Positions 11,961 through 28,517 of a stretch of 28,517 bases of DNA are shown here, piece by piece; position 1 is the first letter of the stretch, and each line of letters begins with the position of its first letter. The position numbers and the translations under genes were made by a program. The DNA is from a virus (taxonomy: Duplodnaviria > Caudoviricetes), in IMG/VR virus record IMGVR_UViG_3300014658_000015, positions 1 through 28,517 of that record; one strand, 5' to 3'. Below the pieces are notes generated by a model. It was not told the DNA's origin, made no database searches, and was given only the letters and a program-made list of their open reading frames with translations.

Positions 11961-12046
11961 GCTTGGCGGCCGAACGGTTCGGTTGGGGCCCTGACGTGCT
12001 CCTTTCCATGACCTGGACCGAGCTGACCTGGTGGCTGGATAGCTGA
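11921..12046 (+). CDS. -1 frameshift extension of the chaperone (gpE+E'-like, about 123 aa fusion)
   Basis: Slippery T TTT TTT at 11921-11927. The -1 frame reads YRRPVDWRARLGLAAERFGWGPDVLLSMTWTELTWWLDS, and its TGA (12044-12046) overlaps the tape measure ATG. Confidence 0.85.
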   Translation, partial: FFYRRPVDWRARLGLAAERFGWGPDVLLSMTWTELTWWLDS

Positions 12047-13677
12047 TGGCCAATAAGTTCCAGATCGAGATCACCGGGCGGGACAAGACCGGCGCGGCGA
12101 TCAAGTCGGTCAACGACAATTTTGACAAGCTGGCCCGCGGCACGCCGCTCGATAAGGTCAACCGGGCCTTCCGGGGCATCCAGGACAAGGGCAAGGCCTT
12201 CGGCGGCATCGCCCGATCGTTCACGACCCTGGGCGACTCGGCGAAGATCGCCGGCGGCGGGATCGAGGAAGCCGCTGGCGGTCTCGGCGCTCTGGGCGCC
12301 GCGGCCGGCGTCGCCGGCCTGGTGACGGTCGGTGTGGGCGTGGCCCTCGGCGAGGCGGCCAACAAGGCCTACCAGTTCGAAAAGGATTTCAGCGCGGCCG
12401 GCGCGACCGTCGGCCGCACGGCGGCGGCGATCGGAATCTCGACCTATCAGTTGCAGCAATTCCAACTGGCCGGCCAGCGGGCAGGCGTGTCGGCCGAAGC
12501 CATGAGCGAGGCCCTGACGGGCATCGGCACGGCGATGCAGGACGCCGTCAGCGGCCGCAACCAGGACGCCCTGGCCTTGATAAACAAGCTGCACATCCAG
12601 GTGCATCGCCTCAAGGACGGCAGCATCGACAGCGCCCGAGGCATGCTCGACCTTTCGGTGGCGATGAAGAATTCCAATCCCGAGACCCAGCGCATGCTGG
12701 TCAGTATCTTCGGCGTCGCCGGCGCGCTCAATTTCATGAAGGAAAGCTCTCGGCAGCAGCAGGCCCAGCTCGCCGCCGCCGCCGCGTCCGGCGCGATCAA
12801 GACCGACCAACAGATCAAGGACGAGACCCGCTTTCAGGTCTCGATCGCGGCGACCAATGAAAAGTGGCACGCCCTTCTCAATACCTTCTCCGAGCGCTTG
12901 ATCATTCCCTGGCTGCAGCCGACCGTAGACGAGATCGGCAAGCTGCTGGGCTACCTCGATCAGCTGCTGGGCGGTGGCGCCAAGGCGAACGCGGCGATCT
13001 ACCGTCACCAGCATGCGCTGTGGGGCGTCGCGGGCCTGAGTCCGCTCGGCGTGGCGGCTGGGGCGCTGTCGGATCCCGGCGGCGTGTTTGGCGACAAGCT
13101 GCCAGGAGGGAAGGGCGCCGGCGCTTCGTCGCCGATCGGCGCCACGACGGCCGCGCTCAGCGACAAAGGCAAGCAGGCCCTGGCCTTCTTCCAGTCGCAG
13201 GGCTGGACGCCGGCCCAGGCGGCGGGGATCGTCGCCAACCTGGCGACCGAAAGCGGGTTCAACACCCACGCCGTCGGCGACTCCGGCCGCGCGCTCGGCA
13301 TCGCCCAGTGGCACCCGGATCGCCAGGCGGCGTTCGCCCAGCTGTTCGGTCATTCCGTGGGCATGGCCTCGTTCGAGGAGCAGCTGAAGTTCGTCCAGTA
13401 CGAACTGACCCAGGGCGTCCGGAAATTCGCCGGCGACCATCTCCGCCACGCGCAAGACGCGGCGACTGCCGGGGCCACGGTCTCCAAGTTCTACGAAGGC
13501 CCGCGCGACGTGCAGGGCGAGATGAACCGGCGCGCCGCCCTGGCCGACCACATCGTGCACGTCGAGATCAATATGAAGAACGCGCCGCCCACCACCACGG
13601 TCGTGGCCAGGAGCTCGAGCCCCCGGGTGACCACGGGCGCCACGGTCACGCCCAGCCTTGCCGGAGCGTCGGTATGA
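12046..13677 (+). CDS. Tape measure protein with a C-terminal phage tail lysozyme-like domain
   Basis: N-terminus MANKFQIEITGRDKT, Ala/Gly-rich helical body, then GWTPAQAAGIVANLATESGFN...ALGIAQW...EQLKFVQYEL. Confidence 0.9.
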   Translation: MANKFQIEITGRDKTGAAIKSVNDNFDKLARGTPLDKVNRAFRGIQDKGKAFGGIARSFTTLGDSAKIAGGGIEEAAGGLGALGAAAGVAGLVTVGVGVALGEAANKAYQFEKDFSAAGATVGRTAAAIGISTYQLQQFQLAGQRAGVSAEAMSEALTGIGTAMQDAVSGRNQDALALINKLHIQVHRLKDGSIDSARGMLDLSVAMKNSNPETQRMLVSIFGVAGALNFMKESSRQQQAQLAAAAASGAIKTDQQIKDETRFQVSIAATNEKWHALLNTFSERLIIPWLQPTVDEIGKLLGYLDQLLGGGAKANAAIYRHQHALWGVAGLSPLGVAAGALSDPGGVFGDKLPGGKGAGASSPIGATTAALSDKGKQALAFFQSQGWTPAQAAGIVANLATESGFNTHAVGDSGRALGIAQWHPDRQAAFAQLFGHSVGMASFEEQLKFVQYELTQGVRKFAGDHLRHAQDAATAGATVSKFYEGPRDVQGEMNRRAALADHIVHVEINMKNAPPTTTVVARSSSPRVTTGATVTPSLAGASV

Positions 13678-17131: not shown

Positions 17132-18301
17132 TTGCCTTTCTCCCGGCCGACCCTCACCCAGCTGCGCGCCCAGGCCGCGGCGGATATCGCCTCGAATCTG
17201 CCGGGCGCCGACGCCCTCCTAAGGTTCTCCAATCTCGGCGTCCTCGGCCAGGTCCTCGCGGCCATGGCCAATGGCCACTACGGCTTTCTCGACTGGATCG
17301 CCCAGCAGGCCGTCCCCTTCACGGCCACCGGCGAGTTTCTCGAAGGCTGGGCGGCGCTCAAGGGGGTCATTCGCTCGCCCGCGACGCCGGCGACCGGGTC
17401 AGCCACCTTTGCGGGCGTCAACGGCAGCGTGGTTCCGGCCGGGACGAACGCCGTTCGCGGCGATGGCGAGACCTATGTGACCACGGCCGACGCCACCGTC
17501 GCGGGTGGATTCGTCACGCCGCCCTTTACCGATACGACCCCGGGCTCGGCCGGTAATTGCGCCGCCGGCGTGGTTCTCACCCTCGGGAGCGCCGTGCCGG
17601 GGGTCCAGTCCGGCGGCGTCACGGCCGGACCCTTCACCGGCGGCTCGGACGTCCAGACCGATGCGCAGCTGCGCACCCAGATGCTGCAGGCCTACGCCGC
17701 CCCGGCCCAGGGCGGGGATCTCGCCGACTATGTCACCTGGGCGCTGGCCGTGCCGGGCGTCACCCGGGCCTGGAACGCCGGAACCGCGCCAGGCGAAGGC
17801 AAGGTCCTGGTCTATTTCATGATGGACTCTTCCGAGAGCGCCTATGGCGGCTTTCCGCAGGGGACCAACGGGGTCGCGGCGAACGAGACCCGGGATACGC
17901 CGGCGACCGGCGACCAGCTGGCCGTCGCCAACTATATCTATCCGATCCGGCCGGTGACCGCCCTGGTCTACGCCGCCGCGCCGATCGCCAATCCGATCGC
18001 CCTGACGATCGCCGGGATCTCCGGCGCCTCGACCACGGTCAAGTCGGCGATCGCCGCCGCCTTCGCCACCGCCATTCTGGACCAGGCGGCGCCGGGCGGC
18101 GTCACCGACAGTCAGGGCAATCCCATCGGCCAGGTGGATCTCTCCTATATCGAGGCCGCCATCGCCCAGGTCGCCGGCACGGCCGGGTTCGTCATCACCT
18201 CGGTCAGCTGTCCCTTCGGCACGGTCACGCCCGGCGGGGACGGGAACATCACCTCGAATTCCTGCTATCTCGCCACCGCGGGGGTCATCACCTATGTCTG
18301 A
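17132..18301 (+). CDS. Baseplate J / Mu gp47-family wedge protein
   Basis: TTG start, MPFSRPTL; PAQGGDLADYVTWALAVPGVTRAW and IRPVTA motifs. Confidence 0.93.
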   Translation: MPFSRPTLTQLRAQAAADIASNLPGADALLRFSNLGVLGQVLAAMANGHYGFLDWIAQQAVPFTATGEFLEGWAALKGVIRSPATPATGSATFAGVNGSVVPAGTNAVRGDGETYVTTADATVAGGFVTPPFTDTTPGSAGNCAAGVVLTLGSAVPGVQSGGVTAGPFTGGSDVQTDAQLRTQMLQAYAAPAQGGDLADYVTWALAVPGVTRAWNAGTAPGEGKVLVYFMMDSSESAYGGFPQGTNGVAANETRDTPATGDQLAVANYIYPIRPVTALVYAAAPIANPIALTIAGISGASTTVKSAIAAAFATAILDQAAPGGVTDSQGNPIGQVDLSYIEAAIAQVAGTAGFVITSVSCPFGTVTPGGDGNITSNSCYLATAGVITYV

Positions 18302-19613
18302 CCGCTTCGCGATCCGGCTCCGAGCCGCGTTTCTGGCGCTCTTCCTGTTCATCGGTCGCCCAGCCCATGCCACGGGCAGCGAGACCCTCAACCAGCTGCA
18401 GCCGCGCGGCGCGCCGGTCTCCACTGACCTGATCCCGATCCTGCCGGTGGGCTCGACGGTCCTGAAAAGCGTGACGGTCGCGCAGCTGCAGGCCTATATC
18501 GCCAGCCTGGGCGGCGGGGTCAGCAGCGTGATCTGCGGAACCGGCATGGCTGGCGGCACGATCACCAGCACCGGCGAATGCGATCTGCTCCCCGCCTCGC
18601 CCACGACGATCGGCGGGGTGGAGAGCCTGGCGGCCGTCGCCCACAACTACCTCACCTCGATCACCACCCTGGGCGTCCCCGTCGCGGCCAGGCCTGCCTG
18701 CGCCGACCTCTCCGACATGGCGCCGAGCTGCAACACCGACACTACCAACGCCGCCAATATCACCAGCGGCAATCTGGCGATCGCCCGATTCGCCGGCGGC
18801 TCGGGCGCCTCGAGCTCGACCTGCTGGCGCGGCAACGCCACCTGGGGCGCCTGCACCGGATCCGGCGGCACGGTGAACGGTGTGACGGCCGGAACCGGCC
18901 TCACCGGCGGCACGATCACCACGACCGGCACCATCGGCCTGGCCTTTCCCTCAGCCACGACGATCGGCGGGGTGGAGAGCCTGGCGGCCAGCGCCCACAA
19001 CTATCTCACCTCGATCACCACCCTGGGCGTCCCCGTCGCGGCCAGGCCGGCCTGCGCCGACCTCTCCGACATGGCGCCGAGCTGCAACACCGACGCCACC
19101 AACGCTTCCAACATCGCCAGCGGCACGCTCGCCAGCGCGCGCCTGCCGGCCATGGCCGCGCACACGCTCTGGGGGAACAATACCGGGTCCACCGCCGCGC
19201 CCTCGGCGCTGAGCGCCGCCCAGGTGGTGGCGATGCTGGCCGGCACGACCTCCGGCACCTTCGCGGCGGGCAACGATTCCCGCTTTGGCGGCCCGACTCA
19301 GGACAGCCAGAGCGGCTCCTATACCCTGGCGCTCACGGACGCCGGCGGCCAGATCTATCATCCGTCCGCCGACACCACGGCCCGCACGTGGACCATCCCG
19401 GCCAACGCCTCCGTGGCCTTCGCCATCGGCGCCAAGATCGATCTGGTGAACGATTGCGGCGCCGGCGCCGTGACCATAGCCATCACTTCGGACACCCTGG
19501 TGTGGTTCACGTCCGGAAGCACGGGCTCGCGCACGCTCAGCGCCTGCGGCGAGGCGACCCTCACCAAGATCGGCGCGACACGCTGGATCGTTACAGGGGC
19601 CGGCCTGTCGTGA
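18294..19613 (+). CDS. Tail-fibre-like protein with a Sec signal peptide, internal duplication and 10 Cys
   Basis: Signal MSDRFAIRLRAAFLALFLFIGRPAHA|. Fibre motifs GTVNGVTAGTGLTGGTITTTGTI and TFAAGNDSRF; C-terminal SYTLALTDAG...WTIPANASVAFAIG domain. Overlaps the end of baseplate J. Confidence 0.8.
   Translation: MSDRFAIRLRAAFLALFLFIGRPAHATGSETLNQLQPRGAPVSTDLIPILPVGSTVLKSVTVAQLQAYIASLGGGVSSVICGTGMAGGTITSTGECDLLPASPTTIGGVESLAAVAHNYLTSITTLGVPVAARPACADLSDMAPSCNTDTTNAANITSGNLAIARFAGGSGASSSTCWRGNATWGACTGSGGTVNGVTAGTGLTGGTITTTGTIGLAFPSATTIGGVESLAASAHNYLTSITTLGVPVAARPACADLSDMAPSCNTDATNASNIASGTLASARLPAMAAHTLWGNNTGSTAAPSALSAAQVVAMLAGTTSGTFAAGNDSRFGGPTQDSQSGSYTLALTDAGGQIYHPSADTTARTWTIPANASVAFAIGAKIDLVNDCGAGAVTIAITSDTLVWFTSGSTGSRTLSACGEATLTKIGATRWIVTGAGLS
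18537..19125 (+). repeat. Intragenic direct repeat with a 354-nt (118-aa) period
   Basis: 18537-18771 aligns with 18891-19125. The core ccacgacgatcggcggggtggagagcctggcggcc...gctgcaacaccgac is nearly identical at 18601 and 18955. Confidence 0.95.
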
Positions 19614-20215
19614 AGCGTGTGGCCGCTGTTCTTGGCTTTCTGGCGTTGGCGGGATCGGCCGCCGCAGTGCCTGGCGGCTGGACCGTGATCGGCGGGATCC
19701 AGGTCGTTCATTTCTTCGCCGGCGGCGCGGGGGTGGAGACCATTCCCTCCGGCGCCAGTCAGCTGATTATCGAGACCTGGGCCGGCGGCGGAGCCGGGTC
19801 GCGCTCCACCGGCGCGCCGGAGCCGAACTGCGGGGGATCCGGCGCCAGCGGCGGCTATGCCCGCAAGACGATCGCCCTGACCTCCGCCAACTGGGGCCAG
19901 ACGCTCGACTGGACGGTCGGCGCGTCGGCCTCGGCGAGCGTGGTCGCCAACGACACGCTCTCCACCGGCGTCGCCATCGGGGGCGGAGCCGGCGGCGCGG
20001 GAAACTCCATCAGCGCGGGGGTCGGCGCGGCGCCGGCCGGGGGCGACATCAACACCGCCGGACACCCGGGCGTCATTGGCTGCGGCGCCGCCGGCGGCGC
20101 GCCGATCCCGGGCCTGGCGGGGGCGGGGTTTGGCGCCGGCGGCGCCTCGGCGCCCAGCGGCGGCTTCCCCGGTAGCGCTGGCTACGGAGGAGCCGTGTCC
20201 TTCAGCTACAGCTAG
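19610..20215 (+). CDS. Glycine-rich fibre-tip/adhesin-like protein with a Sec signal peptide
   Basis: GTG start at 19610 (GTGA overlap). Signal MKRVAAVLGFLALAGSAAA|. Gly-rich pattern ETIPSGASQLIIETWAGGGAGS, GGSGASGGYARK, GYGGAVSFSY. Two Cys. Confidence 0.8.
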   Translation: MKRVAAVLGFLALAGSAAAVPGGWTVIGGIQVVHFFAGGAGVETIPSGASQLIIETWAGGGAGSRSTGAPEPNCGGSGASGGYARKTIALTSANWGQTLDWTVGASASASVVANDTLSTGVAIGGGAGGAGNSISAGVGAAPAGGDINTAGHPGVIGCGAAGGAPIPGLAGAGFGAGGASAPSGGFPGSAGYGGAVSFSYS

Positions 20216-20226
20216 GGCCCGCGCGC

Positions 20227-20997
20227 ATGCTTGATGTCCTCCTCGTCGGCGGCGACGATATCCTGGCGGTCGAGGAAGACGACGTCCTGGCCGTCCAGAC
20301 CTATGTGGCCCCGGTTCTCCCCGACGAGCCCAGCGACGGCGAGACCGCCATCGACCTGGCGATCGGGGACGGAAACAATCTGGCGGTCGACGCCAACAAC
20401 GACCTGGCCGTCTCTCTCTTCACGCCGCTGGGCGACTTTGGCCAGTCCGGCGTTCCGCAGTTCTCGCCGGAGGACTATCAAGCCGCCTTCCAGGCGCTCA
20501 TGCCGCGTGGACGCGTCTGGCCGAACGATCCAGGCAGCGTCCAGTCCATGGTCGCCCTGGGCCTTTCGACCACCTTCGCAAGGTCCAACGCCGCCGCCGC
20601 CGGACTCATCGTCGACGCCTTCCCGGCCACGGCGGTCAACCTGCTGCCCGAGTGGGAGGAAACCCTCGGCCTTCCCGATCCCTGCGCCGGCCCGTCGCCC
20701 ACCCTGCAGGTGCGCCAGGCGCATGTGGTGGCCAAGTTCATCTCCACCGGCGGCCAGTCGGTCTCCTACTTCATCGCCCTGGCCGCCTCGCTTGGCTACC
20801 CGATCACCATCACGGAATTCACCGGCGACCAGGCCCACCACTGGCAGGTGAACGCCCCGACGGTGTCGGAATTCTATTTCCGGGCGGGCGGGGCCTCGGC
20901 GGGCGAGCCGCTGATCATCGGCGGCAACGCGGTCCTCGAGTGCGTCTTCAACGAGCTCAAGCCCGCGCACACCACGGTTTCCTTCCAGTACGGTTGA
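20227..20997 (+). CDS. YmfQ/DUF2313 (Mu gp48-like) baseplate wedge protein with an acidic N-terminal extension
   Basis: ALMPRGRVWP, LLPEWEETLGLPDPC, GGQSVSYFI and LECVFNELKPAHT; about 75 extra N-terminal residues. Confidence 0.92.
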   Translation: MLDVLLVGGDDILAVEEDDVLAVQTYVAPVLPDEPSDGETAIDLAIGDGNNLAVDANNDLAVSLFTPLGDFGQSGVPQFSPEDYQAAFQALMPRGRVWPNDPGSVQSMVALGLSTTFARSNAAAAGLIVDAFPATAVNLLPEWEETLGLPDPCAGPSPTLQVRQAHVVAKFISTGGQSVSYFIALAASLGYPITITEFTGDQAHHWQVNAPTVSEFYFRAGGASAGEPLIIGGNAVLECVFNELKPAHTTVSFQYG

Positions 20998-21006
20998 CGA
21001 GGGCGC

Positions 21007-21804
21007 ATGCAACGGATCGATTCCGCCAACGCCGTGCCGACCATGCCGGCCGTCAAACCGACGGCCGCGCCAGGCTTCTTCGAGGACACTTCAAATCCAG
21101 GCACCGTCGTCACGGCCGATTGGCTGAACGACGTCCAGGAGGAACTGCTCACCGTCATCATCGCCGGCGGCCTCACGCCCGCCAAGGGCGCCACCGACCA
21201 GCTCTACCTGGCCCTCGAGCAACTTATCGCCAACGCCACTGCGGGCGTCTCGAGCTTCAACACTCGTTCCGGCGCGGTGACGCTCACCAATGCCGATATC
21301 ATCGCCGCCCTGGCGGCCGGCGCGCTGCTGAACAGCGTCCTGGCCAACATGCCGGCGGGCACGGTCAAGGCCAATCCCTCGGGCGCGGCCGCCGCGCCCG
21401 AGGACATCACCTTCGCCGCCCTGGCCACCAATCTGGGCTATTCCAAGAGCGGCGCGACCTCGGTCACGCTGCCCAACGCCGGCGATCTGCCCGGCACGGT
21501 CGGCTCCTCGGGCAGTTGGACCGATCCCAACGGCCTCGTCCACCAGTGGGCCTATATCCAGCTCGAGGACTACGGCTCGGGCTCGGGCGCCTACACGACC
21601 TGGACCTTCCCGGAGGTTTTTCCGAACGCCTGCATGGGCCTCGTCACCCAGAACTATTCCGTGATGGCCGGCCAGGGGGGGAACTCCCGGATCGCCATAG
21701 CCGATGTCGAATCCCTGACCGCTCACGCGGCCAACATCCAGATGCACAACACCACCGCCGGCGGGACGCTGTGCGTCTTCTACGTCGAGGCGTGGGGCTT
21801 TTAG
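21007..21804 (+). CDS. Short tail fibre (Mu gpS-type N-terminus)
   Basis: MQRID...PGTVVTADWLNDVQEEL baseplate-binding N-terminus; VSSFNTRSGAVTL motif; C-terminal PNGLVHQW...TFPEVFPNAC domain. No signal peptide. Confidence 0.88.
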   Translation: MQRIDSANAVPTMPAVKPTAAPGFFEDTSNPGTVVTADWLNDVQEELLTVIIAGGLTPAKGATDQLYLALEQLIANATAGVSSFNTRSGAVTLTNADIIAALAAGALLNSVLANMPAGTVKANPSGAAAAPEDITFAALATNLGYSKSGATSVTLPNAGDLPGTVGSSGSWTDPNGLVHQWAYIQLEDYGSGSGAYTTWTFPEVFPNACMGLVTQNYSVMAGQGGNSRIAIADVESLTAHAANIQMHNTTAGGTLCVFYVEAWGF

Positions 21805-21805
21805 G

Positions 21806-22159
21806 GTGGGCGTCTCCGTCGCGGCCACCACTCCGCCCCTCGTCGATCCTTCGACAGGCAACCTGAACCTCAACGCCCGAGGCGGCATCGTCATCAGTTT
21901 TCGCGAGCAGGCGGCTGGCGTTTTTCTCGACATCTCCGCCTTCCAGCTGTTCTTCGAGATCGATGGCTACGCCCGCTTTCAGCTCACGCCCGGCGCCGAC
22001 GACACCGAGCAGCTGATCACTCTCACCGATGAACTGGTGGCGAGCCTGCCGCTCAACACCGCCATCCCCTTCGTGGTGCGCAACGAGACCAATGTTCCGC
22101 CCACGGTCGACTGGGGCGGCATGATCAAGACCTATGGCTACGGGGGCGCGCCAACGTGA
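21806..22159 (+). CDS. Hypothetical beta-rich adaptor-like protein
   Basis: GTG start 2 nt after the fibre stop; GTGA overlap with the next gene; function not recognised. Confidence 0.6.
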   Translation: MGVSVAATTPPLVDPSTGNLNLNARGGIVISFREQAAGVFLDISAFQLFFEIDGYARFQLTPGADDTEQLITLTDELVASLPLNTAIPFVVRNETNVPPTVDWGGMIKTYGYGGAPT

Positions 22160-22392
22160 GCGACACCACCGTCATCATCGATTTTCGCGGGCCGCCCGGC
22201 GCCGCCGGGCCCAGCACCGCCGCCGGCATTTCCTATGACGATAGCCAGACCGGCCTGGGCGTCTCCAGCGTCCAGCAGGCCATCGCCTACCTCGCCAGCG
22301 TGGTCGCCAGCCTGAGCGTCGGCGTCGGCCCGAGCCTCGATTTTTCCAATCCTGACAATTTCCTTTTCGGCCTGAGCAACGGGGTCATCTGA
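22156..22392 (+). CDS. Small fibre-connector-like protein
   Basis: RGPPGAAGP collagen-like triplets and the fibre motif AAGISYDDSQTGLGVSSVQQAIAYL; coupled on both sides. Confidence 0.65.
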   Translation: MSDTTVIIDFRGPPGAAGPSTAAGISYDDSQTGLGVSSVQQAIAYLASVVASLSVGVGPSLDFSNPDNFLFGLSNGVI

Positions 22393-22393
22393 G

Positions 22394-23242
22394 ATGAGCG
22401 CTGGCGTCGTCCAAATCACCGTCAAGGACTCCGCCGGGGTCGGGCGGCCGTTCAATTTCTTCTCCTCCACGGGAGACGGATCGCTCGACACTGGCACCTT
22501 CGCGCCCCTGAGCTTCCTCGGGGACGGGATGGGCGGCTATATCGCGCCGGCGACCTCGACCCTTCAGGCGATCACCAACACCAGCCTGGCGTCGATCCTG
22601 TCGGCGCTGGAGGCCGGCCTGGCGGTCACGGGGCCTCTGACGGCCACCCAGCTCACGGCCGCCTCGCTGGCCACCCACGCCGACGCCCTGGCCATCGTCG
22701 CCGCCCTCGGGGCCCTTCCGCAAACCAATGTGCTCGCCACGGGCACGAACACCGTCGGGGCGATCTCCAACACGGTCTTCGGCGCGACCCAGACGGGCGC
22801 CTGGACCGTCATCGCCAACGCCGGGACCGGCACCTTCGCCATATCCGCCGCGGCCCTGCCGCTGCCCACCGGCGCGGCGAAGGAGAACGGCGGCAATCTC
22901 GACACGCTCGTCGCCCGCATCCTGCCGCCGCTCACGCCCGTCAGCACCGCCGCCCTGGCCTCGAGCCTGGTCGTCAAGGCCGGGGCCGGGAACCTGGCGG
23001 CGATCGAGATCTCGTCCGGCGCCACCGCCGGATGGCTCATGCTCTTCAACGCCACCGCCGCGCCGGCGGACGGGGCCGTGACACCGGTCAAGGCCTATCA
23101 GGTGCCCGCGAACGTCACCGAGCGATGGGAATACGCCAGGCCGCTGGCGTTCGCGACCGGGATCACCGCGGTGTTCTCGAGCACCGGGCCGTTCAACAAA
23201 ACGGCCTCGGCCACCGTCTTCATCTCCGGAGAATCCCAATGA
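22394..23242 (+). CDS. Fibre/spike-like protein without signal peptide or Cys
   Basis: Ala/Thr/Gly-rich; LPLPTGAAKE and LATGTNTVGAI shaft motifs; beta-rich C-terminal domain. Confidence 0.7.
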   Translation: MSAGVVQITVKDSAGVGRPFNFFSSTGDGSLDTGTFAPLSFLGDGMGGYIAPATSTLQAITNTSLASILSALEAGLAVTGPLTATQLTAASLATHADALAIVAALGALPQTNVLATGTNTVGAISNTVFGATQTGAWTVIANAGTGTFAISAAALPLPTGAAKENGGNLDTLVARILPPLTPVSTAALASSLVVKAGAGNLAAIEISSGATAGWLMLFNATAAPADGAVTPVKAYQVPANVTERWEYARPLAFATGITAVFSSTGPFNKTASATVFISGESQ

Positions 23243-24555
23243 TGCGCGCCACCCTTCGCGCCGGCGCGCTCGCGCTCGCGCTGTTCGCCTCGGCGTCGCC
23301 GACACTGGCCCAGGTGACCGCGCCGCCCGGCGAGTCCGTTTCCGGAACCGTGACCGCCGCGGCGGCCACCGGGACGGCCTCCGGCACGATCACCGCCAAC
23401 GACACCGGGACGACCACGACGGCCGGCCAGAGCGGCGTCAATCTGGTCACCGGCACGCCCACCGCCAATTCGTCCCTCACCTTTCCGACCCTCGGCTATT
23501 CCTCGGTCACGGTGACGGCCCAAACGGCGACCTCGTTCCCCACCGGCGCTTCGTTCCAGATCGAGACGTCCAGCGACGGCGGCGTGACCTACTTCCCCGC
23601 CAGCGGCAAGATCGGCGGGACATCGATCACCTCGTCGGCGATCACCGGCTATGGGGTTTTCCGTGTCGATACGACGGGCATGGATCACCTTCGCGTCCGG
23701 GCGACCGCCTATACCAGCGGCACCCTGACGCTGGCCGTCCAGGGCTCCAACTCCTCCGGCCTGACCCAGGTTCTCAACCCGGTCCGGCTGGTCGACGCGA
23801 ACGGCAACGCGGCGGTGTTCACCTCGGGCGGCGCGTTCACTGGTCAGATCACCGTCGCCGATGGCGGCGACACCACCTTCGGCTCCAAGGCCGACGCGGC
23901 GACCTGCGCCACCACCAACACGTTCATGGCCTGCGCGCGCCAGCTGCACACGGATCTCCAGTCGATCCTCACGGGGGTGAACTCCGGCTACTACGTCGCC
24001 GGCACGGGCCAGACCTTCACCGGCGGCTCGGCCATCGTCGGGCCCGACAGCGCCACCTCGACCACCGCCGATTGGCTGACCTTCTACCACGCCGACGGCG
24101 GGGCCGAGGTCCACGTGATGAACACGGTCGCGGTCACCGTGGGCAACACCGTGCCGGTCACGGTGAGCGGCCAGGCCGATCCGTGCTTTGCCTCGGCCAA
24201 GCTGACCGCCGACTTCGAGAGCACCACCTCCGGTGGCTCGATCATCACCGCCGTCTCGGGCAAGAAGGCCTATATCTGCGGGATCCGCATTCACGCCTCG
24301 GCGGCGGCGAACATCTCGCTGAACGAGGGGACCGGTTCCTCGGTCTGCACCGGCGGCACGATCAGCGGCGATTATCTGAACACCGGCTCGACGGCCGCCA
24401 ACGGCGCGGCCTACGCGGCCAACAGCGGCGACTCCGTGGGCTTCGCCAACGCGACCGTCGCCCAGAACGCCACCGCCGGCCAGAATACCTGCGTGCTTTT
24501 CACCACCTCTGGGACGCCGCAGGTGAATGTGCACGTGAGCTACGTCCAGCAGTAG
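23239..24555 (+). CDS. Exported fibre/spike-like protein (signal peptide, 6 Cys)
   Basis: Start ATG 23239 or 23242, overlapping the upstream stop. Signal MMRATLRAGALALALFASASPTLA|Q. Thr/Ser/Gly-rich beta domains. Confidence 0.8.
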   Translation: MMRATLRAGALALALFASASPTLAQVTAPPGESVSGTVTAAAATGTASGTITANDTGTTTTAGQSGVNLVTGTPTANSSLTFPTLGYSSVTVTAQTATSFPTGASFQIETSSDGGVTYFPASGKIGGTSITSSAITGYGVFRVDTTGMDHLRVRATAYTSGTLTLAVQGSNSSGLTQVLNPVRLVDANGNAAVFTSGGAFTGQITVADGGDTTFGSKADAATCATTNTFMACARQLHTDLQSILTGVNSGYYVAGTGQTFTGGSAIVGPDSATSTTADWLTFYHADGGAEVHVMNTVAVTVGNTVPVTVSGQADPCFASAKLTADFESTTSGGSIITAVSGKKAYICGIRIHASAAANISLNEGTGSSVCTGGTISGDYLNTGSTAANGAAYAANSGDSVGFANATVAQNATAGQNTCVLFTTSGTPQVNVHVSYVQQ

Positions 24556-24556
24556 C

Positions 24557-25312
24557 ATGAAGCGCCGCGCCGCCCTTCTTTCGGCCCTCCTGACGCTGAC
24601 CTGGTGCGCGCCGGCGTGGGCGTTCGGCGTCACCTCGCTCGGCAGCAATTCCGGGTCGGCCGGGGCGGCCACCACCCTCGTCATCACCACCACGGCCGAT
24701 TGCCCGATCGGCAGCGAGATCGTCGTCGTCGCCACGGCCAAGACGTCGGTGACCATCTCCTCGGTGGCCGACAGCGCCTCGGCCGGCTCCTATGCCGGCC
24801 TCACCCAGGGTGCCAACAGCACCGGCGGCCGGTTCTTTCACGCCGACAACAGCGGCGCCGATCTTCCCTCCGGGGGAACCATCACGATCACCTATTCGTC
24901 GTCGAGCCCGGCCAAGGCGGCGGCGGCGGCGTGCGTCTCGGGCGTCGCCACGAGCTCGCCGGCCGACAGCGTCACCTTCGCCTCGGCGACCGGAACCGGC
25001 ACTACCCCGGCCTCGGGCGCCACGACCACCTCGACCTATGCGAGCGAGATATTCTTCGGGTTCGCCACCGCCGCCTCGGGCGAGACCTACACCAACAACG
25101 CCAGCTGGACACCCCTGGGAGCGGTCGTTCAGTCCTCCGCCGGCGGCTTCATCTGGGGCTACCAGACGCTCTCGGCCACCGGGTCGGTGAACTACAACCC
25201 GACCATGAACAACTCGACAACCTGGGTCGCCCAGGCGCAGGGCTTCAAGGGCTCCGGCGCGCCCCCCACGACCACGTGCGGCGCCCTGGCCACCATGGGC
25301 GTCGGATGCTGA
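24557..25312 (+). CDS. Exported Ser/Thr/Ala-rich beta protein (signal peptide, 4 Cys in the mature part)
   Basis: Signal MKRRAALLSALLTLTWCAPAWA|F; ends CGALATMGVGC. Confidence 0.8.
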   Translation: MKRRAALLSALLTLTWCAPAWAFGVTSLGSNSGSAGAATTLVITTTADCPIGSEIVVVATAKTSVTISSVADSASAGSYAGLTQGANSTGGRFFHADNSGADLPSGGTITITYSSSSPAKAAAAACVSGVATSSPADSVTFASATGTGTTPASGATTTSTYASEIFFGFATAASGETYTNNASWTPLGAVVQSSAGGFIWGYQTLSATGSVNYNPTMNNSTTWVAQAQGFKGSGAPPTTTCGALATMGVGC

Positions 25313-27132
25313 GGCCGCTTCTCCTCCTTCTGGCCTTCCTGGCCTTCGCGGCGCGCGCCCACGCGACCGTGCGCGGGCGGGGCTCGGGATCCAGCATCGT
25401 GGTCACCGCTTGCTCGCGCGCGCCCGGCTACACCGATCTGCGCGGCAATGCCGACGGCTGCAACGGCGTGACGATCTATGGCCTCACCCTGGCCGCGCCG
25501 GCGTCGACGAGCTCCTACCAGCTGCCCAATTGGACGACGAGCCTGATCACCGATGGCCAGGCCAACGTCCTCGGCTCCTACCTGCCCAACTACAACGTCG
25601 CCGGCGGCGACTTCGGCGATGGCTACAACTACCTCTACGGCGGCCCGAGCGGCTATCCCAACGCCTCCCAGACCGCGACCAATGTGTCGATCTCCGGCAC
25701 GACCCTGACCATCGGCGGAACCGTTACCGAGAACGGCTCGGGCTCCCTGGGCGTGCACTACGGCCAGGGCGTCGTCGGCGCCGGGATCACGGGCTCTTGC
25801 GTGGTGCAGTCCGGCTCGGGAACCGTCTGGAAGGTCTTCGGCGCCGGCTGCCCGACATCCCTCGCCGCCGAGACCGTCACCTTCGCCGGGCTCGACGATC
25901 CGCTCAATCCCTCTTCCGGCCACTCCCTCCCGCTGAACGGGACCAGCAACTGCACCATCGGCCAATCCGGGGCGCTCTACACGCTCGACTGCACACACAC
26001 CACGAGCGCCGACCTGCACATGGCCGGCTGGGATCTGTCGCTGCACGGCGGCATGGACGTGCTGGTGCAGAACCTCACTGGATCGTTCTACAACCAGTTC
26101 AACCACTTCTCCATCGACACCAACAACGCCGTCAACAACACCAATGTGATCCGGGTCAACGGCGCGGCGAATATCTATAACACCAACAATCAATATAGCG
26201 GCAACTGCTACCAGGGCCCCTATTCCACGACCGCCTTCATCGACGACGGCCTGGGCGGCGGCTCCTATGACGGAAACCCCGGCAACACCCTGACCGTCCC
26301 GAGCGTCACCGCCGCCGGCGAGCCGGGCTGGAGCTATTTCGGCGTGGGGACCGTGATCGGCAACGGCCCGATCAACCCCTCCCACGCCATCGCCGGCGGC
26401 GTTCAGATCACCGCCATCGTCAGCGGATCGGGCCAGGCGGGGGTCTATACGGTGAACGGGTCGGCCGCCGCGATCCCGGTGGCCGCGGGCTATCCCATCA
26501 GCGGCGTGAACGGGACCGGTTGCCAGAACACCGCCTTTTTCTCGACGGCGACCGGCGTCGCCGGCGGCGGCGAACTCCTCTCGGCCTTCGAGGTGTTCGA
26601 CCACCCGCCGAGCCGCCCATACTCGGACGCCGTCACGGGCTCCTTCCACATGTTCGCCCTCATGGAGATCGGCGGCTCCGTCGACAGCTGCTGCGGAGCC
26701 CAGCATTTCGAGATCCGCGAAGGCGTTTGGGGATCGACCTCGTGCAGCGGAAGCTTCTGCACGATCCCCGACACGTCCTATGAGTATATCACCTACGTCC
26801 AGCCGCAGAACCAGCAGGGCGGCACCGCGCCGATCTACCTCTCCACCGGCCAGAACAGCAGCACCGTCTATGCGACGATCGATGTGCTGGCCGGCCTGTT
26901 CATCATCAATAGCCAGGCGGGTCTTCCCATCGGGTCCTCGGTGCTGGTCAACGGCTACAACAACACCGCCGGCACCGTGCGTTACGACAACATCCGCACC
27001 TATCCGCGCGGGGCCGACAACTGCTTCGGCAACACCGGCTTCACCGCGACCTTCTCGAACATCGTCGATCTCGTCGATGGCTCGGCGATCACCGGCTACA
27101 CCAACCCCGGCGTCTGCCCGGGATCGCAATGA
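25306..27132 (+). CDS. Exported tailspike/adhesin-like protein (signal peptide, 14 Cys), possibly beta-helical
   Basis: Start ATG 25306, overlapping the upstream gene. Signal MLRPLLLLLAFLAFAARAHA|T. Asn/Gly/Thr/Tyr-rich, 608 aa. Confidence 0.78.
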   Translation: MLRPLLLLLAFLAFAARAHATVRGRGSGSSIVVTACSRAPGYTDLRGNADGCNGVTIYGLTLAAPASTSSYQLPNWTTSLITDGQANVLGSYLPNYNVAGGDFGDGYNYLYGGPSGYPNASQTATNVSISGTTLTIGGTVTENGSGSLGVHYGQGVVGAGITGSCVVQSGSGTVWKVFGAGCPTSLAAETVTFAGLDDPLNPSSGHSLPLNGTSNCTIGQSGALYTLDCTHTTSADLHMAGWDLSLHGGMDVLVQNLTGSFYNQFNHFSIDTNNAVNNTNVIRVNGAANIYNTNNQYSGNCYQGPYSTTAFIDDGLGGGSYDGNPGNTLTVPSVTAAGEPGWSYFGVGTVIGNGPINPSHAIAGGVQITAIVSGSGQAGVYTVNGSAAAIPVAAGYPISGVNGTGCQNTAFFSTATGVAGGGELLSAFEVFDHPPSRPYSDAVTGSFHMFALMEIGGSVDSCCGAQHFEIREGVWGSTSCSGSFCTIPDTSYEYITYVQPQNQQGGTAPIYLSTGQNSSTVYATIDVLAGLFIINSQAGLPIGSSVLVNGYNNTAGTVRYDNIRTYPRGADNCFGNTGFTATFSNIVDLVDGSAITGYTNPGVCPGSQ

Positions 27133-27221
27133 GCACGCTCGCCCCCTCCCTGCGCCTCACCGACCAGGTCGTGGCCCGCGCCGGTCAGAATGATCGTTAC
27201 CGCTATTCAGTCACGCTCTAA
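27129..27221 (+). pseudogene. Possible 30-codon gene remnant (MSTLAPSLRLTDQVVARAGQNDRYRYSVTL)
   Basis: ATGA-coupled to the previous gene. Codons are GC3-rich for about 20 codons, then the sequence turns more AT-rich. Confidence 0.25.
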
Positions 27222-27238: not shown

Positions 27239-28186
27239 ATGGTCGGGGCGATCGAAAACACGGCTAGGTGTAGGATTTGCGGCGGCGCGGAGCGTTCAAG
27301 CCTCTTCGTCCGCGAGATGATGTTCGGCTCCCGCGAGAACTTTCGGTATTTCGAATGCGTGATCTGCGGCTGCCTTCAGATCGCCGATATTCCGACCGAC
27401 CTCGGGCGCCATTACCCGGATGACTACTATTCCTTCGCCAGGGCGGCGGGCGGCCTGAAAGAGCGGCTCAAGCGCGTAGCCATAAGGACCACGCTCAGGG
27501 CCTCGGGCTTCGTCGGGCCGCTTCATGCCGCCCTCGTTCATCACGGCGGCGATATCGGCTTGCTGGCGCGCTATCAGGCCCTTTGTCCAGATCGTGGGGC
27601 CAGGATAATCGATGTGGGCTCCGGGGCTGGACGCATCGTTCTTGGGCTCCGCAACGCCGGATATCAAAACGCCGCCGGCATCGACCAATTCGTGACCGGT
27701 GACACGGGGCGAAATCCCGTTGTGCGCCGGGCCGAGCTATCCGAGATCAACGGCCTCTTCGATCTGATCAGCTTCAACCACTCGCTTGAGCACATGCCCA
27801 ATCAGGTCGAAGCGCTTACCGGCGCCCGCGAAAAGCTTGCGCCCGGCGGCAAGATTATGGTCCGCCTCCCCGTCGTCGGCGGGAAGGCGTGGCGGCAATA
27901 TGGAGCCGATTGGGTGCAGATCGACGCGCCGCGCCACCTCTATCTGCATTCCAGGAAGAGTCTCGAGATCATCGCCCGTGGCGCCGGCTTGCGGATGGAT
28001 TCAATCACTTTCGACTCTACGCCTTATCAGTTCTGGGGAAGCGAACTCCTCCGATCCAATATCTCGCTGAACGATCCAAGGTCGGCCACGCTGAGAGCCG
28101 AGGGGCCAAAACGATATGCCGCCGCCGCTCGCGCGCTCAATGCCCGAGAAGACGGCGATCAAGTCATGGTCGTATTGTCCGCCTGA
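27239..28186 (+). CDS. Class I SAM-dependent methyltransferase with an N-terminal CxxC...CxxC motif (moron-like)
   Basis: CRICGG...ECVICGC, motif I IIDVGSGAG, FDLISFNHSLEH, LAPGG and DAPRHLYL. Visibly more A/T-ending codons than the operon. Confidence 0.9.
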   Translation: MVGAIENTARCRICGGAERSSLFVREMMFGSRENFRYFECVICGCLQIADIPTDLGRHYPDDYYSFARAAGGLKERLKRVAIRTTLRASGFVGPLHAALVHHGGDIGLLARYQALCPDRGARIIDVGSGAGRIVLGLRNAGYQNAAGIDQFVTGDTGRNPVVRRAELSEINGLFDLISFNHSLEHMPNQVEALTGAREKLAPGGKIMVRLPVVGGKAWRQYGADWVQIDAPRHLYLHSRKSLEIIARGAGLRMDSITFDSTPYQFWGSELLRSNISLNDPRSATLRAEGPKRYAAAARALNAREDGDQVMVVLSA

Positions 28187-28341: not shown

Positions 28342-28517
28342 ATGACCGACCTTAATCCCGTCGATCTCGACGACCCCACCATCGCCGACCTTGGCGCCTG
28401 GGTGGGGTCCGATCTGATTCCCCGCCTTCGGGCCGGCCAGGTGCGCATGGGGCGCGGCACGGCGGCCGAACTGCTGGCCTATGTCGCCGATGGCGTGGCG
28501 CTGGGGACGGCGATCGA
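28342..28517 (+). CDS. 5' part of another fibre-like gene, truncated by the window end
   Basis: MTDLNPVDLDDPTIADLGAWVGSDLIPRLRAGQVRMGRGTAAELLAYVADGVALGTAI..., open to the window end. Resembles the mature N-terminus of the 18294 protein. Confidence 0.55.
   Translation, partial: MTDLNPVDLDDPTIADLGAWVGSDLIPRLRAGQVRMGRGTAAELLAYVADGVALGTAI

Follow-up and report, generated by a model that had tools for sequence, protein, structure and literature searches.

The virus record IMGVR_UViG_3300014658_000015 of IMG/VR, which we have analysed along its whole 28.5-kb length (the window; GC content 63-72%), contains a contractile-tail operon in which five genes encode proteins that begin with a Sec-type leader and carry an even number of cysteines in their mature part; this five-gene observation holds and goes far beyond chance. 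By the usual view, the assembly of tailed virions is finished in the cytoplasm while the cell is still intact. Our comparison of the five proteins with their homologues makes it rather probable that they are disulfide-bonded fibres and adhesins that fold in the periplasm and, at lysis, join the finished virion by way of a dock that we predict on the baseplate protein gp48. Their predicted Sec export, taken by itself, is highly probable, and their attachment to the virion is suggested by the virion-anchor domains that lie behind the leaders and by the candidate dock.

The five open reading frames (ORFs), all on the plus strand, are A (18294-19613, 439 residues), B (19610-20215, 201 residues), C (23239-24555, 438 residues), D (24557-25312, 251 residues) and E (25306-27132, 608 residues). 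Leaders have been called with a fixed heuristic of our own, not with SignalP: a basic n-region, an uncharged h-region of ten residues and an A-x-A site. Among the 33 called genes of the window, the heuristic flags five, and these are exactly the genes to which the initial annotation had assigned Sec-type leaders. Their n-regions are basic, their h-regions are uncharged with a ten-residue mean hydropathy of 2.3-3.2, and A-x-A-type sites are located at residue 26 (A), 19 (B), 24 (C), 22 (D) and 20 (E). The mature parts contain 10, 2, 6, 4 and 14 cysteines, respectively, in agreement with the counts given earlier; D has a fifth cysteine within its leader. The mature cysteine density is 36/1822 (1.98%) in the five genes, as opposed to 50/6822 (0.73%) in the leaderless ones. 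Five even counts by themselves reach only p=0.03, and the strong support therefore comes from the homologues. The lack of cysteines that had been noted for the signal-less neighbours at 21806, 22156 and 22394 is confirmed; among the other leaderless genes, gp48 (20227) and the fibre gene at 21007 have two cysteines each and the hub gene has eight, and since the first two of these lie inside the same interval, the control had been selective.

The leader-bearing genes form two blocks with five leaderless genes in between: A and B lie between the wedge genes J and gp48, and C, D and E follow three leaderless, cysteine-free genes. The distances from each start codon to the previous stop codon are -8 (A), -4 (B), -4 (C), +1 (D) and -7 (E) nucleotides (nt), i.e. 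all five genes overlap or abut their neighbours, as had been noted. In-frame GTG codons occur at or just past the cleavage site in 19610, 23239 and 25306; the homologues of 18294, 19610, 23239 and 24557 retain the leader, so that the upstream start codons are likely the true ones, while 25306 has no clear homologue for comparison. None of the five proteins has a match in Pfam, and PHROGs gives only weak matches, for 19610.

Fibre A consists of a predicted Sec signal peptide with an A-H-A site (residues 1-26, 18294..18371), an anchor-type N-terminal domain, a repeated shaft and a C-terminal beta-sandwich (residues 332-439, 19287..19610) that contains Cys388 and Cys418. A homologue search with A returned 1404 matches among 8000 scored candidates, of which 120 are listed. 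Leaders occur in 69 of 119 listed homologues and are missing from the other 50; mature cysteine counts are even in 62 of the 69 leader-bearing homologues, and the cysteine density is 1.46% in the leader-bearing and 0.45% in the leaderless ones. In the 112 of 120 listed rows that align in the C-terminal domain, the pair Cys388/Cys418 is complete in 57 of the 64 flagged and in 4 of the 48 unflagged ones; of these four, one is truncated at its N-terminus and three have a leader by eye.

The same link is found in a quick tree of 176 C-terminal-domain sequences, taken from the homologues of A and from fetched loci, with the cysteine columns kept and six leader labels assigned by eye. The tree leaves out duplicates and short matches, genes at contig edges, locus genes of <150 residues and three pair-bearing rows that are truncated. 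The rows comprise 62 with both pair and leader, 9 with a leader only and 105 with neither: the cysteine pair is accompanied by a leader in 62/62 rows and is found in 0/105 leaderless rows, one of which has a single cysteine. Sixty-six leader rows form one clade (Shimodaira-Hasegawa-like approximate likelihood-ratio test, SH-aLRT, 96), in four rows of which both cysteines have been lost together; across the rows, Cys388 and Cys418 are gained and lost as a pair, as is expected of disulfide partners. Behind the leaders, the mature N-termini of the 69 rows fall into 17 clusters, several of which are variants of one domain, and the A-x-A sites of the leaders fall exactly where the leaderless homologues begin. 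The telling points are that the whole clade retains the leader although the mature N-termini differ, and that the cysteines are lost pairwise. The survey of signal conservation that had been proposed for homologous loci thus finds the leader kept throughout the clade of the cysteine pair, and the proposed export and oxidative folding are well supported by the co-occurrence of leader and pair.

Although the model of A is weak overall (predicted local distance difference test, pLDDT, 63; predicted template-modelling score, pTM, 0.33), residues 332-439 superpose on a Pa223 capsid spike (9ny6_C; Z 12.0, root-mean-square deviation, rmsd, 2.2, 94 aligned residues), on a baseplate chain of Klebsiella phage KP1 (Z 11.7) and on residues 80-180 of TSP4 (7rej_B; Z 10.9), which correspond to the range of the XD1 domain that is also known from T4 gp10. 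Only the XD1 range is matched, with no match to XD2 or XD3 listed, and most of the model of A is of low confidence. A search of solved structures with the sequence of A gave no match. A fit of residues 37-82 to the tail fibres of phage 7-7-1 (Z 2.0) was rejected as too weak to use. By eye, fibre A shows an internal duplication (~residues 75-165 and 192-283) with a C-x9-C pair in each copy; self-BLAST reported none. Two queries against 401 class-level genomes, A1 and the C-terminal domain of C (23239), gave no match and, for want of a positive control, are uninformative; a search of viral contigs likewise gave no match. In an annotated phage collection, 19610, 23239 and 24557 have no match and the N-terminal domain of A reaches E 0.8 only, the full-length A and 25306 not having been queried.

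The partner of A is B (19610..20215), a glycine-rich, leader-bearing adhesin with two cysteines, which is conserved next to the XD1-like fibre. Its model (pLDDT 67) superposes on the Pam3 fibre (7ypx_A; Z 14.1, rmsd 3.2, 156 aligned residues) and on the Bxb1 tail-tip proteins (Z 11.8), and Gly_rich_2 is found in 14 of 16 aligned relatives. These folds bear out the fibre and adhesin identity that had been read from the sequences of 18294 and 19610. The gene that immediately follows a fibre with the XD1-like domain bears a leader at 12/12 loci with the cysteine pair (ten by the heuristic, and two where the start set by the script fell inside the leader, one of these being the window); where the pair is missing, the partner is leaderless at 62 loci and leader-bearing at one, whose fibre also has a leader, and 23 loci have no called partner. 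The leader of the partner tracks that of the fibre, and therefore fibre and partner appear to change compartment together, as is expected if they bind each other.

The N-terminal domain of mature A (18372..18521), which we have labelled the 'KISQLP'-type domain, often forms the beginning of phage proteins that have no leader and is the candidate for the part that binds the dock. A profile of this domain (A2) matches residues 26-54 of the crAss001 tail fibre gp22 (E 3.5e-4), and a profile built without the window row recovers the domain in A (E 0.0015), as well as a second copy in a partial leaderless ORF at 28342..28517 on the plus strand (E 0.005). In a survey of 189 loci, fetched with two DNA patterns, 114 leaderless and 4 leader-bearing proteins begin with the domain, and 12 further matches are internal. 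Another type of virion anchor is seen in the homologue P0061, where the T7 tail-fibre N-terminal domain (PF03906, 27-142) directly follows the leader.

The genes that adjoin N-domain fibres often show, by eye, three acidic-hydrophobic units with a period of ~8. With a regular expression fixed beforehand, the acidic repeat is found <=150 nt upstream of N-domain genes in 22/117 newly fetched cases (one of which is the locus L012 again), as opposed to 2/92 control windows located 600 nt further upstream (p=1e-4); an in-sample version of the test (7/14 vs 8/63), tuned on its own positives, is not counted as evidence. In the window, units that resemble these are located on the Mu gp48-like baseplate wedge (20227..20997, plus strand; leaderless, two cysteines, PF10076 at residues 87-255, phrog_203), which has an acidic N-terminal extension of ~70 residues with two candidate dock blocks: block 1 (20239..20295, residues 5-23) consists of three units with a period of ~8, and block 2 (20356..20412, residues 44-62) has a score of only 1.4. 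A scoring matrix derived from other phages (25 motif strings, in part one motif in shifted register) ranks residues 5-23 first and residues 44-62 third among 8517 window positions. Among 18 gp48 sequences, several of whose starts are called too far downstream for a full scan, only those of the window and of L012, which is in the training set, score >1; the wedge of L028 scores 4.1. The motif is located on a leaderless wedge in both of these loci, at the C-terminus of gp48 in L012 and at the N-terminus of the wedge in L028, and both have a leader-bearing fibre with an A-type N-terminus nearby (in L028, by eye). We propose, with moderate confidence, the acidic extension of gp48 as a candidate particle-side dock for the N-terminal domain of A; since there are two blocks and also two N-domain genes, each of the genes may have a dock of its own, with block 2 possibly used by the product of 28342. 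Elsewhere, gp48 relatives in L009-L016 have a proline-rich N-terminal extension in place of the acidic one, and the fibre encoded after them is leaderless and has a diverged N-terminal domain; a 100-residue leaderless protein with a partner-type N-terminus and two acidic motif blocks lies between two fibre genes in L099 (8317-8619) and L112 (5117-5422), where it is likely a branching adaptor.

The events at this locus would then be as follows. The five genes, whose starts overlap or abut their neighbours, would be co-expressed with the baseplate genes; their products are predicted to be exported by Sec and to lose their leaders, and would receive their disulfides from the Dsb proteins of the host. 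A would trimerise, as its fold suggests, and bind the adhesin B at its C-terminal XD1-like end, while C, D and E, whose gene order is conserved in L028, may form a second chain. Lysis would mix the compartments, and the N-terminal domain of A would bind the three-unit block of gp48, one unit per subunit. The ordinary leaderless fibre of 21007 would provide for a functional particle, with extra, disulfide-stabilised arms for host recognition supplied by the exported set.

Several points weigh against this proposal. The leaders are predicted, by a home-made heuristic. The link between cysteine pair and leader, by its place in one clade of the tree, is one event and not 62. In the accessible text of the report on CBA120 TSP4 (PMC8825819), XD1 is described as a probable spacer and not as a docking face. 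The virions of Milano and crAss001 have disulfides and, by the terms searched in the main texts, no mention of export, and cysteine pairs therefore would not need the periplasm. As regards the dock, 95/117 N-domain genes have no acidic motif nearby; a hidden Markov model (HMM) version of the test gives 8/92 vs 0/58 with a cut-off of 8 bits and loses its significance from 10 bits upwards; 59/5000 shuffles score as high as block 1 of gp48 (p ~0.012); the regular expression misses the gp48 extension, as does an HMM built without the window; the motif-bearing protein of 59 residues in L298 and L342 is itself flagged as leader-bearing; and the dock may in reality serve the other N-domain gene, the leaderless one at 28342.

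Alternatively, the exported proteins may form free complexes of fibre and adhesin that never reach the particle. Set free by lysis, or retained in the envelope of the lysogen, these would mask receptors or serve as decoys, and would block rival phages or protect the progeny from re-adsorption to debris; we regard this as unlikely. In its favour, the case for export is stronger than that for attachment, the particle already has an ordinary leaderless fibre (21007), many close baseplate relatives are devoid of the cassette, and in L298 and L342 the anchor, the motif protein and the fibre all look exported. Against it, N-terminal domains of virion-anchor type have been retained directly after the leader, the acidic motif is located on leaderless wedges in the window, L012 and L028, and A and B are inserted between the two wedge genes.

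A service to the host cell, by domesticated fibres that act as surface adhesins in lysogenic conversion, in the manner of the Bdellovibrio MAT fibres or the prophage Eib proteins, had been one alternative of the initial annotation. It draws on the existence of secreted adhesins that resemble phage fibres, as described in the accessible text of PMC10769870, on the occurrence of the fold of D in large bacterial proteins, one cluster of which is automatically named as a cell-wall surface anchor family, and on the presence of protein A on a 287-kb contig, which makes the phage probably temperate. It is weakened, and in our judgement quite unlikely, in that the genes overlap late structural genes and recur among the morphogenesis genes of several phage types; moreover, none of the five proteins has a Pfam match to a YadA-type membrane anchor, as in Eib-like trimeric autotransporters, or to another membrane anchor or autotransporter domain, and at their C-termini A and B adopt the folds of soluble phage domains. 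As regards the MATs, Pfam gives no match at all for the five proteins, and the mature N-termini of the A homologues are diverse, with no shared domain after the signal (MAT sequences were not compared directly). It is very unlikely that the leaders are uncleaved membrane tethers or hydrophobic assembly peptides, with the proteins joined on the cytoplasmic side and their cysteines oxidised in air after lysis, as perhaps in Milano and crAss001, whose virion disulfides are known without a described export in the accessible texts; leaderless partner proteins also start with a hydrophobic peptide, and the leaderless gp48, hub and fibre 21007 contain cysteines too, but the leaders are tripartite, with A-x-A sites at the very position where leaderless homologues begin, and the cysteine pair is missing from all 105 leaderless rows.

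If the proposal is true and the folding of the receptor-binding arms is periplasmic, with their attachment at a later time, lysis is itself a step of assembly; the host range of a phage is determined in part by the Sec and Dsb systems of the host; and parts of the virion are missed by annotation pipelines in which a signal marks a gene as non-structural. The locus narrows the question of the dock to a domain of 50 residues and a peptide of 20 residues that are predicted to bind. A wider generalisation, which we put forward tentatively and as somewhat short of even, is that tailed phages of several tail types assemble in two compartments, with modular, Dsb-dependent fibres and adhesins of periplasmic origin that snap at lysis onto short three-unit acidic peptides of baseplate proteins built in the cytoplasm, the peptide and the N-terminal domain being a widespread and so far undescribed fibre-plug code that is reused across the inner membrane.

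The remaining genes of the two blocks are less well characterised. C (23239..24555) is a fibre-like protein with six cysteines, whose C-terminal domain occurs with leaders: 18 of its 22 homologues are flagged and a 19th has a leader by eye, while three leaderless ones match only residues 34-214, i.e. the N-terminal part that C has in common with leaderless proteins. D (24557..25312) is a beta-sandwich protein with four mature cysteines, whose look-alikes in the Atlas are tailed-phage proteins (score 0.97 to clusters that are 91-95% viral); four of its six homologues are leader-bearing by eye, one is fragment-like and one is leaderless. E (25306..27132), with 14 cysteines, belongs to no family, and the Atlas gave no usable fold for it; it has a positional counterpart in L028 and, by its position, is likely the distal receptor-binding unit. 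In L028, which has another baseplate, five leader-bearing genes are arranged as in the window, clear homology being limited to A and D, and similar cassettes are found among the morphogenesis genes of L001, L003, L004, L012 and L033. In L298 and L342, on the minus strand, a leader-bearing cassette directly follows the portal gene (PF06381 in L298), and in L033, L088 and L031 such fibres lie between portal-like and capsid genes, which suggests head or neck fibres.

The leaderless neighbours, all on the plus strand, include the J-like baseplate wedge (17132..18301; three cysteines, PF04865 with E 2.6e-51, phrog_6), the ordinary Mu-type tail fibre (21007..21804; two cysteines, PF21882 and several tail-fibre PHROGs) and the three cysteine-free genes (21806..23242; 117, 78 and 282 residues), which have no family in Pfam or PHROGs and are likely adaptors and a fibre base of the cytoplasmic side. 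When 22156-23242 is compared by eye with 7776-8843 of L004, the end of the 78-residue protein of 22156 resembles the end of the L004 gp48, and the next genes start alike; the junction of 22156 and 22394 is possibly a second docking pair of peptide and domain. By Pfam, the terminase, portal and capsid genes of the window are lambda-type, and the contractile tail and baseplate are Mu-type. Since protein A was also found by the homologue search on the 287-kb contig, the phage is probably a prophage, and the relatives of the baseplate genes in Rhodopila, Janthinobacterium and Sphingomonas records suggest a proteobacterial, diderm host. No lysis, integrase or Dsb genes were recognised within the 28.5-kb window, a promoter and terminator scan gave a signal no better than chance, and a look-up for RNA listed no holder. 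A tape-measure-like gene (12046-13677) ends in a phage tail lysozyme domain (PF18013), and a 30-codon ORF (27129-27221) that overlaps the stop of 25306, together with an S-adenosylmethionine (SAM) methyltransferase gene of lower GC (27239-28186, PF13489), looks inserted into the late operon.

In comparison with known systems, none of our full-text literature searches, which covered few subscription papers, found a paper that describes exported tail fibres, in keeping with the earlier statement that no system of this kind was known, and none is described in the accessible texts on phiCbK, JG068, 7-7-1 and neural-network annotation (PMC3556154, PMC3426561, PMC3765740, PMC3517404). Tailspike proteins (TSPs) are cytoplasmic proteins that are not known to have leaders, and pIII, a filamentous phage protein that uses Sec, is a virion adhesin with periplasmic disulfides; filamentous phages, with pIII and pVIII, differ in that they assemble at the membrane without lysis. 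Sec-exported endolysins are also phage proteins that use Sec (PMC6116005, in its accessible text), but they are not virion parts. The MAT proteins of Bdellovibrio are trimeric adhesins that resemble phage fibres and have signal peptides; according to the accessible text of PMC10769870, they are bacterial surface proteins with a common beta-rich domain of ~130 residues after the signal and, in most, an S74 chaperone, whereas the proteins described here belong to a phage tail operon and have mature N-termini of phage-anchor type. Milano, an Agrobacterium phage, has a disulfide-rich tailed virion, in which the bonds cross-link capsid, collar and tail (PMC10811340, PMC10491603); 'cytoplasm' and 'DsbA' are absent from the main texts of both reports, and 'periplasm' from that of PMC10811340. 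In crAss001, the A-type N-terminal motif that the profile matches in gp22 adjoins its virion-docked segment; as far as the main text of PMC10172136 goes, the tail hubs contain disulfides, and residues 1-26 of gp22 sit in the tail hub and dock through hub proteins, a difference from the dock proposed here, and the word 'signal' does not occur. The fold of B is that of the Pam3 fibre (7YPX/7YFW) and of the Bxb1 tail-tip glycine-rich proteins (9D93), from which B differs in three ways: it has no counterpart of the ~70 residues that open the Pam3 chain, it bears a leader, and a separate gene behind fibre A encodes it. CBA120 TSP4 and T4 gp10 and gp9 belong to branched receptor-binding complexes, with trimeric fibres that have beta-sandwich modules of the XD type and with chains of receptor-binding proteins anchored on the baseplate (PMC8825819, in its accessible text); the structural match of A, through its C-terminal domain, is to XD1 and lies at the distal end, with no match to XD2 or XD3 among those listed. 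In the literature searched, the export route is undescribed for tailed-phage fibres, and the parts involved belong to known fold families.

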